In this document: positions 11,749-22,569 of the stretch, one piece after another
Numbering within the stretch: position 1 is the first letter of the stretch
Layout: each line of letters begins with the position of its first letter
From: a virus
Taxonomy: Duplodnaviria; Caudoviricetes
Direction: 5' to 3' (one strand)
IMG/VR virus record: IMGVR_UViG_3300043394_000609
DNA length: 64,000 nucleotides
The notes under the pieces: model-generated
Told to the model about the DNA's origin: nothing
What the model saw: only the letters and a program-made list of their open reading frames with translations
Database searches by the model: none
Position numbers and translations under genes: made by a program

Positions 11749-13119
11749 TTATTGTGTCTTTTTGTTGTATGAAAGCATTTCCTTCATTCTGTTCATTTCT
11801 TCACTAAGAATATTCTGGTTTGTTTCAGATTCATTTACTTCTTTAACAGGTTGCGGATCTTTCTCGTACATCGGAGCATCTTCAATTGCTTTCTTTCTTC
11901 TTTCTACTTTCTTGATCATTTTCTCACCCAATTTACTTGGAATTACATTCGCAGCATCATGTGAGTTACCCATTTTAGTGTCACCAATTAAAGACATTTT
12001 TAATCTTTCTTTGAATGAATCAGATGGTTCGTAATCATAATCTAAATCTTCCATTCCACCACCTCTGTTGTCAGCAACCTCTTCATCTTGCTCTTCAGTG
12101 TTTTGTCTCGCAACTTTTTCACCTTTACCAATTTGTTTTGGGAACTCTGGGTTATCATTACCATCAAATGATAATGAATCTTTAATTTTCTTTTCGGTAT
12201 CTGCTAATGCTTTTTTGTTTTCTTCACCGCTACCTTTATGTGCCGCTTGATAACTAACCATTCCTGGGATAGCAGCTTCAGCAATATTTTTAATCATTTG
12301 AACCAATTCTTTTTCAGTTAATCTAATTGTGTTCTTTGTTTTAATTTCAGATTCATACATTGTTCCACTACATTCTGAACATACACCCTCTTCATTTAAC
12401 ATGCTACCACATTCTGAACAAGTTTGTTCTTCTTCTTTCATTTCAGAACCACATTCCATGCACTCTTCGTTTTCATCTACTTCAGAATATAAAGCATCCA
12501 TATAAGTTGATACACCTTCGTTATTAGCCCAGTTATCCGAATCGTGAGGATCGATATCATGTTTTTTTAATGCACCAGCTGTAAGGATTTTAAAATCTTT
12601 TGGATCCCAGTCATTATCTTTGATGTCTTGTTTACACCAGTTCGCGATTTCAGATCGGTCCATACCAGATTCATATTCCCAACCACTAAAGATTTTACCG
12701 TTTTCTTTGTTAACTGCAAAATGTGTGTATGATGGGTCAACTTCCCAATTACCTTCTTTAACTTCTTCTTCCGAATCACCAGAACGAAGTTTTGCAAAAT
12801 CATCTGCATCGATTTTACCATTACCATTAGCATCAATTTTTTCTTGATTACCAACTAATGTTTCATCAAGTTCGTCAGACATACCGTCTAACTCATCAAT
12901 TGATGGTTTAACACCTTTCTCAATGATAAACTCTTTACCTTCATCATTATATGATTGTAATTTTTCTTCCGCCTCTTCTTGTGTGTCACACATCTCGATT
13001 GGTTTACCTTGTTTATCTTTGATCATATAAACTTCTTCAGCGTTTTCCATAATGATAGCTTTTCTAATTTCAGACGATACGGCCTGTTCTATTATTTGTT
13101 TTAAATTAACTCTTTTCAT
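11749..13119 (-). CDS. Acidic putative prohead-core/internal head protein
   Basis: EF-hand-like DANGNGKIDADDFAKLR, three CxECG-type motifs, IRLTEKEL and LSEEMNRMK motifs, TATTTAT motif upstream. Confidence 0.5.
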   Translation of the reverse strand: MKRVNLKQIIEQAVSSEIRKAIIMENAEEVYMIKDKQGKPIEMCDTQEEAEEKLQSYNDEGKEFIIEKGVKPSIDELDGMSDELDETLVGNQEKIDANGNGKIDADDFAKLRSGDSEEEVKEGNWEVDPSYTHFAVNKENGKIFSGWEYESGMDRSEIANWCKQDIKDNDWDPKDFKILTAGALKKHDIDPHDSDNWANNEGVSTYMDALYSEVDENEECMECGSEMKEEEQTCSECGSMLNEEGVCSECSGTMYESEIKTKNTIRLTEKELVQMIKNIAEAAIPGMVSYQAAHKGSGEENKKALADTEKKIKDSLSFDGNDNPEFPKQIGKGEKVARQNTEEQDEEVADNRGGGMEDLDYDYEPSDSFKERLKMSLIGDTKMGNSHDAANVIPSKLGEKMIKKVERRKKAIEDAPMYEKDPQPVKEVNESETNQNILSEEMNRMKEMLSYNKKTQ

Positions 13120-13120
13120 A

Positions 13121-14053
13121 CTAAATAAATATCTCTTTAATTTCTTTTGACACTAAATTTTCAACATCTTTTACCGATAAACCATGTTTTTCTGCGTTTT
13201 CAACAATTGCTTGATCTAGCCCGTTTATTTCTTTCATAATTTCAATTGCATTTATTCCCTGATTACAATATGGAAATTTTTTACATTTTTCTTTAACCTT
13301 AACAAAGACAGCATCTGGTCCACCCCATTTAGGAAATTTCTTGTCCTTAACTGCTCTACTTTTAGCAATACTTTTAACACCACCTATCTTTAATGGGTTC
13401 TTACCCCCATCGCCAAAAGGAGCATCGTATGCTCCGGAAGATGACGCGTCAACTGCTTCTTCAACTTCGGTTTGTTGTTCAGTTAATTTAGCATTATATA
13501 TTTTTTGAATGTTTGCTTTTGTTTGAACCGGACTAAACGCCCCTTCGAATGAACCGGAAGAACTTGAATCTGTTTGTTCTTTGGTATCTTTAGGAACACA
13601 GTTTGGTACGTCCTTACCGTTCTTTTTCTTCATTCCAACCATTTTGTAGTTAGACCAACAATCTTCTTTTACATCTGATTTCATGTTTTCATTAATTTTT
13701 TCTTTTGTCATATCAACAACCCATAATTTAGGATCAATTCCATTTTTTATCATTCCAGCTGTTCTGGTGTTACCACCTAATAAATCATAATCAGTGTCAC
13801 TAAATTTAACAGCAATTGGTAATTCAAGTACTCCGGTGGCAAAATGTTTTTCAAAACGTTCTTTCTTTTCCGGGTCTAATAATTCAAAATCTAAATCAAC
13901 ATTACTTAAAACATCTTTTATTTTTGAATAATCAGTAATGAACCCATTTTCTTTAGCCAATTCAATCCAAGCGTCTTTACCGATTCTTTCAAATTCTCGA
14001 TAACGAAGTGCTTCTAGATACTCATGTCCAAAATCAGGGAACTTATATTGCAT
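13121..14053 (-). CDS. Putative internal virion protein with ParB/Srx-like N-domain
   Basis: LPIAV...YDLLGGNTR resembles the ParB/Srx motif; CWxNY..GMKKKNGK.VPNCVP module. Confidence 0.45.
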   Translation of the reverse strand: MQYKFPDFGHEYLEALRYREFERIGKDAWIELAKENGFITDYSKIKDVLSNVDLDFELLDPEKKERFEKHFATGVLELPIAVKFSDTDYDLLGGNTRTAGMIKNGIDPKLWVVDMTKEKINENMKSDVKEDCWSNYKMVGMKKKNGKDVPNCVPKDTKEQTDSSSSGSFEGAFSPVQTKANIQKIYNAKLTEQQTEVEEAVDASSSGAYDAPFGDGGKNPLKIGGVKSIAKSRAVKDKKFPKWGGPDAVFVKVKEKCKKFPYCNQGINAIEIMKEINGLDQAIVENAEKHGLSVKDVENLVSKEIKEIFI

Positions 14054-14292
14054 TACCTAATGTTTTTAATTGCACCTTCCCAAAAACCTTTTCGTTGCCA
14101 TAGTGTTTTAAACAACTCAACAACTACTTTGGTTGAAAGATCAATAATTTTATCGTCTATTTTTTTGGTGCCCAACTCTTTCTGGATTACTTTAATAACA
14201 ATGTCGTGCGCTTTAGTTGTGTCTAAGAAGTTTTTAACTTCTTTTTGTACAATCTTTTCAATTTCTTTCTTATCGTCGTTACTTAGTGCCAT
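14053..14292 (-). CDS. Hypothetical protein
   Basis: 79 aa, coupled to the next gene by TAATG. Confidence 0.65.
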   Translation of the reverse strand: MALSNDDKKEIEKIVQKEVKNFLDTTKAHDIVIKVIQKELGTKKIDDKIIDLSTKVVVELFKTLWQRKGFWEGAIKNIR

Positions 14293-17232: not shown

Positions 17233-18048
17233 TTATAAATAGTTTATTAGAGAATAACTCTCATTTCTTAATTTCTTTAACGCCTTATCCTTCAATTGTC
17301 TAATCCTTTCTTTAGTACACCCAAATTCTTCACCTAAGTCGTCCAAGTTCTTTTCAACACCAGTTAAACCAAAGTACCCGTCAATAATTGCTTGTTCTCT
17401 TTTGTCTAATGATGACATAATTTGTTTAATACGTATTTTTAGATCTTCACCATTAATCATTAAAGTTTCTGGGTTATCCGCGTTTTGATTTGGTATTAAT
17501 TCAAGTAAAGTGTCCCCTTCCTCATTTATTTCCCTAAATAAATCAACTGTTGTTGGTAGTGGTATTAGTGGTGATGTTACAACGTCAAAAGAATATCTAC
17601 CATCATATGATGTAATTTCATCTCTTTTTTGTTTCTGAGTGTCTTGTAAAACGTTGGATGGAACTCTAATTGTTCTAGCATATTCGTTTAACGCATACAT
17701 TATTGACTGTTTAATCCACCAAACCGCGTATGAGATGAATTTATAACCTGATGTATAATCATATCGGTCAATCGCTTTTATTAACCCAATATTACCTTCG
17801 GATATTAAATCCGCAACATCTAATCCTTGGTTTTGGTATGTTTTAGCCACCGAAATGACAAATCTTAAATTACCGGTAACTAATTCATCAACAAATGCTT
17901 TTCGTTCACTTTTACTTAAGTTTTTATTTTCTTTCATGATTTTGAATATTTCAAATTCTCTGTCATGTGTAATTACTGGAATCTTCTTTAAATCCTTTAA
18001 ATAATATTGTATTTCTTCTGTTTTTGCTAATGGCGCACTTTTTTTCAT
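17233..18048 (-). CDS. Phage-encoded RpoD-family sigma70 factor, Bacteroidota type
   Basis: NLRFVISVAKTYQNQG, DLISEGNIGLIKA, KFISYAVWWIKQSI, region 4 TKERIRQLKDKALKKLR; lacks region 1.1. Confidence 0.95.
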   Translation of the reverse strand: MKKSAPLAKTEEIQYYLKDLKKIPVITHDREFEIFKIMKENKNLSKSERKAFVDELVTGNLRFVISVAKTYQNQGLDVADLISEGNIGLIKAIDRYDYTSGYKFISYAVWWIKQSIMYALNEYARTIRVPSNVLQDTQKQKRDEITSYDGRYSFDVVTSPLIPLPTTVDLFREINEEGDTLLELIPNQNADNPETLMINGEDLKIRIKQIMSSLDKREQAIIDGYFGLTGVEKNLDDLGEEFGCTKERIRQLKDKALKKLRNESYSLINYL

Positions 18049-20372: not shown

Positions 20373-20398
20373 GATTATTGTTTTATTATAAATACAAA

Positions 20399-20419
20399 GA
20401 GGTTCTAAATAAGAACCTC
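20399..20419 (-). terminator. Hairpin/terminator after the Zn-ribbon gene
   Basis: GAGGTTCT-N5-AGAACCTC perfect 8-bp stem followed by UUUGUAUUU. Confidence 0.6.
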
Positions 20420-20444
20420 AATGCTAGCCTTGTGATATTTTTTA

Positions 20445-21275
20445 TTAGAATTTTGTTCCGCAATGTGGGCAGAACTTATGTGTGTCTTTTTTTCTTTTCG
20501 AACCACACTCGGTACAATATGATACTAAATCAGATTTAACAAACAATTTTTCAGATACTGGTTTTATTTTCCACCAATTTGTTGTGCTTGGGAAAGATTC
20601 CCATGATGATGAATTATCATAATCAAAAGTTTGTTTTGAACTTGAACCTTTTTCAACCCTTCCGGTTTCAATTGATTTTTCTTTTTTTAAACTTCTTTTA
20701 TTTGGACCCGCAAATGTGTTTACCCCCGAAATGGTATTCGATGATTGATTAAAGTCAAGTGACACACCAGTGGTATACGAAATGTTCGATGTCCCATTAA
20801 GTGTTGTCATTGGATAATTAACGTAAGTTCCAGTAGATGGTGAAGACAATGTTGTAAATGTTGCATTACTTCCCCAATTACTTGTTATTGATGGATTCAA
20901 TGTTAAAACGCCAGTAAAGGTCTCCTTATAAAACTTAACATTTACATTCCCGTTAATAGCTATCGCCGCTTCAACTTCATTAGTGGTTGCCGCTTCAACA
21001 TTATAGGTCTCAAATAAGAATTTCTTAGCCTCGCTCAAATAGCGTTCTAAATAGATTCTTTCACCTGGTCTAAGAATAATTCCATTACCAATAGAATTAC
21101 CATTAACTTCGATTTTTGCTAAAACTTTATTTTGTGTTGGATTAAAAAGTTCGATTTCGAACTCATCACCGTTTTTAAGATAAACGGTATCAATATTCTG
21201 TTTTAATCTTTGTTTACCCTTGGTAATAAAAGATTGAGGTACAGTAATAGACCCCGTAGCTGTGAAATATCCCAT
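20445..21275 (-). CDS. Beta-rich hypothetical protein with C-terminal Zn ribbon
   Basis: FEIELFNPT...ILRPGERIYLER domain, S/T-rich linker, ETGRVEKG, CTECG...FCPHCG. Confidence 0.8.
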   Translation of the reverse strand: MGYFTATGSITVPQSFITKGKQRLKQNIDTVYLKNGDEFEIELFNPTQNKVLAKIEVNGNSIGNGIILRPGERIYLERYLSEAKKFLFETYNVEAATTNEVEAAIAINGNVNVKFYKETFTGVLTLNPSITSNWGSNATFTTLSSPSTGTYVNYPMTTLNGTSNISYTTGVSLDFNQSSNTISGVNTFAGPNKRSLKKEKSIETGRVEKGSSSKQTFDYDNSSSWESFPSTTNWWKIKPVSEKLFVKSDLVSYCTECGSKRKKDTHKFCPHCGTKF

Positions 21276-21299
21276 TTCCTTATATTTTTTAATTTGTAT

Positions 21300-21371
21300 T
21301 TGAACCCCTATTCGTAGGTATCAATTCCTACTCAAATGTTTCTAGAACACTAGGACCTCAATCACAAGGCT
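21300..21371 (-). ncRNA. Structured 5' leader (predicted three-way junction)
   Basis: P1 UUGAGGUCCUA/UAGGGGUUCAA (one mismatch), P2 GUGUU/AACAU, linker UUGA, P3 GUAGG/CCUAC, linker GAA. Confidence 0.55.
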
Positions 21372-21492
21372 TTAAATAAATATATGGATAAATAAAAAAA
21401 AAGGGAAGTATAAAGATAGTGTTGGTTAAAATTAATTTAACGAATAAAAAGTCTAGGTGGGTGTTTTGGTGTTTTACAAGATATTTATTTAT

Positions 21493-22569
21493 ATGGATAG
21501 AAAAGTTTTTATATATGGTCTTTTTGATGTTAGAAATGATGTTATAAGATATGTGGGTAAATCAATAAATGTCGAAAAAAGACTAAGAGATCATCTAAGT
21601 GAAAGAAATAGAACTAAAAATCATAAAAATGATTGGGTTAGTTCAGTCATTGAATCCAATTCAAAAATCAATTTTAAAATACTTGAGGTTTGTGATGAAA
21701 GTAATTGGAAGGAACGAGAACGAGAATGGATTGTTAAACTAAGAAAAGAAAACAATTTGGTTAATTACACTGATGGCGGTGATGGTGAGCAAACAAATCG
21801 ATTTACATTATCTTATTGTGAATTAAAAGAGTGGGTTATTAAAAATAAACCAGAATATGTAAATTCAATTTCATCATATAAAAAGTGGGTTAAATTTAAT
21901 AATACACCAATTTTTTTGCCGAAAACCCCTAAAAACGTATATGAAAAATATGGGTGGGTTAGTTGGGGTGATTTTTTAGGTACCGGTAATGTAAAAAGTA
22001 ATGATTTGATTAAAAATTATATAACATATGATGAATGTAAAAAATGGGTAAAAGAAAATTTAAGCATCGTAACTTCAATTAAAATGTGGAAGAATTACCA
22101 TGAAAATAATCAACTACCAATTTTTATCCCAAAGCGACCAGAAAGATTTTATAAAAGTAGGGGGTGGGTAGATTGGTATGATTTTTTAAATTACAATAAA
22201 AAAACATTTTTATCTCACCACGAAGCCAAAAAATGGTTGAACGAAAATTTTGGTAAAATAAACATAGTTGAATTTAAAAAATTATGTGCTAATGGTGATA
22301 TCCCTAATTTTATACCAAGGAAACCACATAACACATATGATGATTTTATAAGTTGGAATGATTTTCTAGGTGGTAAAAGTAAAAGAAATAAGAACGATTA
22401 CTTATCATTTAATGATGCAAAAAAAATTGTACACACACTAAAAATAAAATCAAGAAATCAATGGAAAGGGTTTATTAAAAACGAAACACATAAACTAAAA
22501 ATACCAACTAACCCGGATTCATTTTATTGTGGTGAATGGGTTAGTTGGTATGATTGGTTAGATAAATAA
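21493..22569 (+). mobile_element. Free-standing GIY-YIG homing endonuclease with C-terminal integrase-repeat-like units
   Basis: FIYGL...IRYVGKS...KRLRDH, E..WI, LVN.TDGGDG; four PxxPxxxY..W.SW.DFL repeats; opposite strand to neighbours; ATG 21493 preferred over GTG 21457. Confidence 0.85.

Follow-up and report, generated by a model that had tools for sequence, protein, structure and literature searches.

The stretch analysed here, referred to as the window, is 64 kb of viral DNA (Duplodnaviria; Caudoviricetes) from IMG/VR record IMGVR_UViG_3300043394_000609. It comes from a very large, Bacteroidota-type phage and has a G+C content of 30-36%. The element under study surrounds a gene for a 276-aa protein with a predicted zinc ribbon (the Zn-ribbon gene), which has phage-type neighbours: a GIY-YIG endonuclease, ClpP and an SbcC-like ATPase. 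The flanks of the gene carry two short complementary sequences, here called the 5′ arm and the 3′ arm, which an earlier, model-made note had read as the complementary ends of a closed-loop mRNA. In the 5′ to 3′ direction of the mRNA, the locus consists of a promoter-like box (TATATTTATT), 3 nt, the 5′ arm, a 96-nt leader, an open reading frame (ORF) of 276 codons, 8 nt, the 3′ arm, 6 nt and a hairpin. All coordinates of the element are positions in the window and refer to its minus strand.

21384..21375, minus strand: promoter-like box TATATTTATT, which includes TATTTATT at 21382..21375 and is followed by 3 nt (UAA) and then the 5′ arm
21371..21361, minus strand: 5′ arm AGCCUUGUGAU, the predicted first bases of the mRNA, complement of 20426..20436
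21359..21302, minus strand: three-way-junction leader, within the 96-nt leader, delineated by covariation and a covariance model
21284..21278, minus strand: UAUAAGG, 2 nt before the AUG, resembling a Shine-Dalgarno (SD) sequence and able to pair, less strongly than the 3′ arm, with CCUUGUG of the 5′ arm
21275..20445, minus strand: ORF of 276 aa, with the stop codon UAA at 20447..20445
20436..20426, minus strand: 3′ arm AUCACAAGGCU, beginning 8 nt past the stop codon
20419..20391, minus strand: intrinsic terminator with an 8-bp stem, a 5-nt loop and a U-rich tail, detected by a terminator scan and in the transcript fold

The 3′ arm AUCACAAGGCU is the exact reverse complement of the 5′ arm AGCCUUGUGAU over 11 nt, and 924 nt separate the two. 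The terminator scan placed the stem-loop, GAGGUUCU-UAUUU-AGAACCUC, at 20419..20399, followed by UUUGUAUUU, and this hairpin was the sole terminator-like site found in the region. The 11-nt inverted repeat, the promoter box, the terminator and the spacings between them were all found again where the earlier note had located them. On the window alone, the repeat was not beyond chance: with one mismatch allowed, 20 of 100 shuffles gave at least two matches. A length-based score for complementarity between 5′ and 3′ flanks was calculated for every predicted gene, and the Zn-ribbon gene came only about 16th of 55, because chance helices of AT-rich sequence put some 15 other genes at or above it. 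The top score, a 24-nt complementarity, was that of the neighbouring GIY-YIG gene; it was AT-only and of low complexity and was rejected as chance. The significance of the repeat comes only from its conservation and covariation in relatives.

Public metagenomes contained 3720 relatives of the 276-aa protein, typically ~60% identical and many of them on contigs of 200-400 kb. A total of 215 loci were collected, which reduced to 123 distinct flank pairs. In the first 48 loci, the position of the longest stretch of 5′/3′ complementarity was already constant: 92-97 nt ahead of the ATG on one side, 8-13 nt past the stop codon on the other. Scoring set every 16-nt 5′ arm against its own 3′ untranslated region (UTR) and against 300 control windows of the same locus. 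At least the 99th percentile of the 36,900 control windows was reached by 117 of the 123 distinct loci, with the helix at the same two places, and for 108 loci none of the 300 controls attained the observed helix score. The helix measures 11 bp in the window and 9-16 bp in the relatives, with a mode of 13.

The arms have changed extensively while remaining paired. There are at least ten unrelated arm sequences, every one complementary to its own partner. The commonest version is GACCUUGUGGUU; the others include GACCUUGUGG, UAACCUUGUGAUU, GAAACCUUGUUAC, GAAACCUUGUUGAU, AGAGCCUGAC, AGAGCCUCACUCU, GAGUUAAC, GCCUCGUGUGG and GCCUUUUACC. Complementarity is also kept by the arms of a 462-kb phage (UCUCACUUUGUU) and a 635-kb phage (GCUGUUCG). 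Covariation statistics, computed over 85 arm haplotypes, showed that 83.8% of the cells form canonical pairs and that both sides have changed at 15 of the 16 positions. The covariation score was 0.319, compared to 0.13 ± 0.008 in column shuffles (0 of 500 reached the observed value), and it fell to 0.04-0.09 when the partner was slid by 1-3 nt. Covarying 5′/3′ complementarity in the flanks of homologues, which the earlier note had proposed to look for, is therefore present, and we regard the helix as almost certainly real and under selection.

The sense of the mismatches points to RNA. At interior single non-Watson-Crick positions on the mRNA strand, 46 haplotypes had G-U or U-G, as opposed to three with A-C or C-A. 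Of the two possible duplexes, that of the sense strand was the stabler one in 44 loci and that of the antisense strand in 14. Both the G-U bias and the duplex stability favour a helix in coding-strand RNA over paired DNA sites. Inverted repeats acting at the DNA level, as paired protein-binding sites or as the ends of a recombination unit or mobile cassette, are extremely unlikely: two copies of one site would indeed co-vary with their binding protein, and the downstream neighbours do differ between loci, but the mismatches are G-U on the sense strand rather than A-C, and the length and register of the arms vary freely so long as pairing persists. Moreover, both arms lie within the transcription unit, which holds no recombinase, the element occurs once per genome, and 65 loci have an SbcC-like gene on the same strand upstream of it. 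A mobile cassette with terminal inverted repeats is likewise unlikely, given the single copy in each of four searched records, the SbcC-like gene upstream in those 65 loci and the GIY-YIG gene in one locus only. That the helix acts at the level of RNA is highly likely.

Signals for the start and end of transcription frame the two arms. In 114 distinct upstream regions, the 5′ arm is preceded, at 4-7 nt, by a conserved TATA(C/T)TTAT box. In the window, TATTTAT precedes 17 of the 56 genes, usually 4-23 nt from the ATG and in six genes only 4-7 nt from it; the Zn-ribbon gene has by far the longest box-to-ATG gap, 100 nt. No sigma-70-type site was called at the promoter-like box. The transcript would start near 21371, about 5 nt past the box and at the first base of the 5′ arm, and the start predicted by the earlier note fits the spacing of the TATTTAT boxes of the 17 genes. 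With a start about 5 nt after the box, the messages of genes whose box is close to the ATG would be nearly leaderless, and the six genes with the box at 4-7 nt suggest leaderless late mRNAs with SD-independent translation of the Bacteroidia type. On the other side of the gene, the 3′ arm starts 5-10 nt past the stop codon in 90 of the 117 loci and ends 0-6 nt before the hairpin. Because the promoter box precedes the 5′ arm and the terminator follows the 3′ arm, both arms are very probably on one RNA.

Metagenome contigs of ~1 kb were considered as transcript-derived assemblies and discarded, since their ends include promoter DNA or the next gene; a 1-kb cut-off probably explains their lengths. 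Directly past the terminator, at 20387-20394 on the minus strand, is a TATTTATA box, 15 nt before the next gene, which encodes a 112-aa coiled-coil protein. The terminator and the next promoter are thus packed back to back. This terminator-promoter module (…CCUCUUUGUAUUUAUA…) recurs in relatives that share the coiled-coil gene downstream, a gene that is present in 18 loci.

Folding of the predicted 984-nt transcript kept the helix in both the minimum free energy (MFE) and the centroid structures, together with the terminator hairpin. When leaders were folded with the 3′ UTR added, the 5′ arm paired with the 3′ arm in 109 of 112 cases. The folding of the RNA's 5′ end onto its 3′ end, as the earlier note had proposed, is very probably real, given its occurrence in 117 of 123 loci, the compensatory changes and the sense-strand G-U bias. 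The circularisable RNA that the same proposal also envisaged did not find such support: nothing indicates a covalent circle, and the 3′ arm is internal, being followed by the terminator hairpin. A 10/12 repeat between the leader (AUUGAGGUCCUA, 21362..21351) and the terminator (AUUGAGGUUCUU, 20422..20411) is present as well. Through it, the leader could instead pair with the 3′ arm of the terminator, but relatives do not keep this pairing: the own-locus score (12.15) equalled the cross-locus score (12.16) almost exactly.

Within the leader, next to the 5′ arm, three stems are predicted to form a three-way junction.

21359-21351 with 21310-21302, minus strand: leader P1, 8 pairs with an internal mismatch
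21350-21346 with 21340-21336, minus strand: leader P2, a 5-bp hairpin
21331-21327 with 21318-21314, minus strand: leader P3, a 5-bp hairpin

The joining strands are UUGA, which connects P2 and P3, and GAA, and the junction nucleotides UUGAG and CGAA are highly conserved. Among 59 diverse leaders, 90.7% of the cells were paired and both sides had changed in 17 of the 18 pairs. The covariation score reached 0.559, compared to 0.20 in shuffles, and none of 500 shuffles attained it. RNAalifold, run on a MAFFT alignment of the leaders, recovered P1 only; P2 and P3 required a structure supplied by us. A covariance model of the arm and leader (R1) matched the window once, with 100 bits, and gave one match in each of four further records, three phage genomes of 405, 316 and 311 kb (each at least 93% complete) and one metagenome-assembled genome. 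Two huge phages, of 462 and 636 kb, were also recognised by the model. A single match per record makes the element specific to the Zn-ribbon gene. The earlier statement that no other gene has such ends holds in this sense, that the model of leader and 5′ arm matches this gene only.

A search of the locus against Rfam at E ≤ 10 returned no leader match, only noise. The leader was also considered as a hammerhead ribozyme and rejected, on this lack of an Rfam match, the absence of a CUGANGA core and the UUGA that joins P2 and P3. A weak match to the leader model at 14049-14157 on the minus strand (22 bits, E = 0.14) contains a UUGAG...CGAA core, with a 310-aa ORF shortly downstream. It was dismissed as a second leader copy and is probably spurious, since a plausible 79-aa ORF encloses it and the protein encoded next is unrelated.

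The high conservation of UUGAG and CGAA at the junction would also suit an autoregulatory ribonucleoprotein, in which translation would be controlled by the Zn-ribbon protein itself, through binding to the leader or panhandle of its mRNA. The C-terminal zinc ribbon of the protein is basic, and ribosomal and RNA-binding ribbons are among its weak sequence matches (E > 0.01). However, the protein has no identified RNA-binding fold, and its body is a generic immunoglobulin (Ig)-like sandwich. Some relatives carry a SHOCT domain in place of the zinc ribbon, and only adjacency ties the protein to the RNA. We consider such autoregulation very unlikely indeed, and the recognition of the RNA by the gene's own product, which the earlier note had offered as a possible role, is unsupported.

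The 5′ arm has a second complementarity, to the region of the start codon, which the earlier note had missed and which is weaker than that to the 3′ arm. Its bases CCUUGUG can form seven pairs, two of them G-U, with UAUAAGG (21284..21278). Divergent classes keep a match between arm and start region with other sequences in the same position, namely UCAGGU, AGUUAAUU, ACGAG, UAGAC and GGUAAAG, and GAGA in LR756500. When the start regions were permuted among 15 arm classes, the observed total was reached in 3 of 20000 trials. The mean pairing energy of the arm with its own start region was -6.4 kcal/mol, compared to -3.0 kcal/mol with other genes of the same loci, and the own start region was the best partner in 54 of 70 loci. 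Pairing with the 3′ UTR partner amounted to -16.6 kcal/mol. In the main clade, the pairing of arm and start region is an alternative to a 5-bp extension of P1, which is preferred.

SD-like tetramers lie upstream of 3 of the 56 window genes, compared to a background of 8.5%. Such scarcity fits Bacteroidia, whose ribosomes are described as ignoring SD sequences (PMC7797042). With the window otherwise SD-poor and the ribosomes SD-blind, the conserved AAGG at the Zn-ribbon gene is more likely an RNA-pairing partner than an SD sequence. Ribosomal protein bS21 is encoded in two of three related jumbo-phage genomes, G002 (316 kb, 17858-18016) and G003 (311 kb, 280791-280940), as it is in the freshwater "bS21 phages" (PMC9723584). 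It helps to keep Bacteroidia ribosomes SD-blind, and its presence in relatives therefore bears on the AAGG next to the AUG of the Zn-ribbon gene.

Through the helix, a single-gene late mRNA has its predicted first bases connected to the part of its 3′ UTR that separates stop codon and terminator, and the leader directly adjoins the helix. Our best reading, which we consider moderately probable, is that an end-pairing RNA helix buries the 5′ end and may free the start region only in complete messages. The helix would form only after the whole message, including the 3′ UTR, has been transcribed, and the first nucleotides would then be hidden next to the terminator hairpin. A free 5′ end is what RppH, RNase E and RNase J require. 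For this reason, and by analogy with the hbs mRNA discussed below, the helix should stabilise the message, shielding an abundant late transcript from decay for which the 5′ end must be free. That such protection is a main role falls just short of an even chance.

A role in licensing translation is possible, though clearly less probable than protection. The 3′ arm is predicted to outcompete the leader-internal partners of the 5′ end, and completion of the message may in this way free the start region. With so short a distance from the stop codon to the 3′ arm, ribosomes that terminate should get as far as the helix at its inner, G-U-rich end, which would link the fold to translation. With about the same probability as licensing, the 5′ end could serve as a sensor of completeness, its first bases pairing within the leader, including just 5′ of the AUG, until the 3′ arm pulls them away. 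The pairing within the leader would apply during transcription or after degradation of the 3′ end, and the 3′ arm would open the SD-blind start region. If so, only complete messages would yield the interrupted beta-sandwich protein, by a licensing logic that is opposite to that of hok and aapA and not described for phage or bacterial mRNAs. One may speculate on a rationale for freeing the start region at completion: in the structural model, a truncated 276-aa product would be an incomplete fold, because the sandwich is completed by strands from residues 201-239, after a disordered insert.

Several observations weigh against the proposed closing and licensing of the message. The transcript start, the transcript end and the pairing in vivo are things that we infer. 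The helix is weak or absent in a few lineages (the clade of loci L056, L057 and L212, the loci L063 and L211, and LR756504), so it is dispensable in some phages. Of the 46 haplotypes with G-U positions, 38 trace to one inherited position. As for licensing, of 112 leaders folded alone, only 34 show pairing between arm and start region, and in the window this conformer is 1.6 kcal/mol less stable than the MFE structure, its pair probability being ~0.1. The AAGG near the AUG could also be a true SD sequence that is used under special conditions.

The minor share of this conformer, in the window and in the MFE structures of the leaders, also speaks for a simpler explanation, that the helix does no more than guard the ends of an abundant late mRNA and the match to the start region is a by-product of the SD-like AAGG, with no switch involved. 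The precedent of hbs, a stabiliser, agrees with it. This pure stabilisation is nevertheless unlikely in our view: divergent classes swap the AAGG for other sequences that match their arms (AGUUAAUU, ACGAG, UAGAC, GAGA), the permutation among classes rarely reproduced the observed total, and SD-like motifs are otherwise essentially absent in the window.

The closest known system is the hbs mRNA of Bacillus subtilis, in which a 14-bp helix linking the 5′ UTR with the 3′ UTR modulates cleavage by RNase Y (Braun, Durand and Condon 2017, PMC5737220). Both are 5′ UTR/3′ UTR helices on a short, single-gene, abundantly expressed mRNA with a structured leader, and that of hbs is tied to protection from ribonuclease. 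A complementarity of at least 10 bp between the UTRs of one mRNA, as expected of the hbs type, was found here too (11 bp in the window, 9-16 bp in the 117 loci). Sequence and gene are unrelated, and while the hbs 3′ UTR is reportedly not conserved in close relatives (PMC5737220), the phage helix covaries across more than 100 divergent phages. The phage helix further differs from that of hbs in starting at the predicted very 5′ end and in having a competing second partner at the start codon.

Pairing of the 5′ with the 3′ end is also known from type I toxin mRNAs, such as hok with its fold-back inhibition and aapA of Helicobacter pylori with its metastable structures (PMC6733600). As in hok and aapA, the end pairing at the phage locus is accompanied by competing local structures that involve the ribosome-binding site (RBS); in the toxin mRNAs, these control access during transcription. 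In contrast to the phage gene with its 276-aa ORF, hok and aapA encode small toxic peptides and have antisense RNAs, and no antisense promoter-like site was called across the phage leader. Their end-paired, full-length form is translationally inert, whereas the predicted logic of the phage mRNA is reversed, with the end-paired form leaving the start region open.

In Staphylococcus aureus, icaR and RNAIII show pairing of the 5′ UTR with the 3′ UTR within one mRNA, which affects translation (reviewed in PMC7821165). The icaR 3′ UTR carries an anti-SD motif, blocks the RBS and creates an RNase III site (PMC7821165). In the phage mRNA, by contrast, it is the 5′ end that carries an anti-SD-like motif (CCUU), and the 3′ arm shares AAGG with the start region, which it resembles rather than complements. 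A 3′ UTR anti-RBS of the icaR type was accordingly rejected, as the phage 3′ arm pairs with the 5′ end. Leader-trailer stems of rRNA operons are similar in that flanking sequences pair and enclose a whole functional RNA in a loop. They are longer, lie inside a longer precursor and are RNase III substrates, whereas the phage helix of 9-16 bp is at the predicted ends of a protein-coding primary transcript.

These two precedents raise the question of a processing stalk of the RNase III type, in which the helix, stacked on P1, would be a double-strand cleavage site that trims or inactivates the message. The helix (~13 bp) and P1 (8 bp) share a continuous 5′ strand, and stacking could extend the helix core to about two helical turns; the 5′/3′ pairing of icaR makes an RNase III substrate (PMC7821165). 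The helix by itself, with its mode of 13 bp, is nonetheless short for RNase III, and it begins at the predicted transcript start, not within a longer precursor. Such a stalk is very unlikely.

A literature search for phage mRNA panhandles yielded nothing relevant, only the bacterial cases of hbs, icaR, RNAIII and aapA, none of which has been reported with deep phylogenetic support. The end-pairing element and its leader are, as far as can be told, new to the literature. Jumbo, huge and probably mega-phages of Bacteroidota have kept the element through abundant compensatory change. It comes coupled with a three-way-junction leader not described before, and the translation system in which it sits disregards SD sequences. 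This phylogenetic depth, the leader and the SD-blind setting make it a natural, alignable model for what closing of an mRNA does in prokaryotes, be it stability, licensing or ribosome recycling. The relatives supply a ready set of natural compensatory variants for experiments.

The 276-aa protein is predicted to be an Ig/major sperm protein (MSP)-like beta-sandwich with a disordered Ser/Thr/Asn-rich insert and a C-terminal zinc ribbon. The AlphaFold2 model had a mean predicted local distance difference test score (pLDDT) of 78.7, with the insert, ~85 residues long, disordered. Pfam Zn_Ribbon_1 matched residues 253-275, below the cut-off. Nothing was found for the protein in PHROGs, nor below E = 0.02 in a sequence search of the PDB, and a fold search of the PDB gave generic Ig/MSP-like matches only (Z ≤ 6.6). 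A protein atlas held only hypothetical phage clusters for it. In BFVD, the predicted fold matched proteins of giant eukaryotic viruses, of nudiviruses and of iridoviruses (ISKNV ORF098, ranavirus ICP-18), as well as WSSV wsv390, all uncharacterised (E = 1e-9 to 1e-4); the solved structures matched were only generic Ig-like ones. Judging from these models, the protein may belong to a very widespread viral beta-sandwich family.

At 31-37% identity, the protein family reaches the Lak megaphages of Prevotella and "huge phages" of 460-735 kb (records MK250015-MK250029, LR756500-LR756508 and LR745206). The leader model detected LR756500 and LR756504, and end helices of new sequence were present in LR756500 and LR745206. 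The Lak megaphage loci gave no match to the leader model at E ≤ 1, and their start codon is ambiguous under recoded TAG. In LR756500 (L223), besides the 12-bp end helix, a GUUAAGG just upstream of the 5′ arm matches GCCUUAAC directly after the stop codon. The two pairings cross in order and would be pseudoknot-like or alternatives, and the GUUAAGG may precede the transcript start.

The neighbourhood of the gene varies. Downstream neighbours differ from locus to locus. In the window, the GIY-YIG homing-endonuclease gene (21493-22569, plus strand) lies between the Zn-ribbon gene and ClpP, with its start codon directly after a TATTTAT box. It looks like a recent insertion, because it is upstream in only 1 of the 123 distinct loci, the window's own. 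Elsewhere in the window, a 456-aa ORF (11749-13119, minus strand) starts immediately past a TATTTAT box and has sub-threshold matches to zinc-ribbon/double-zinc-ribbon and EF-hand domains.

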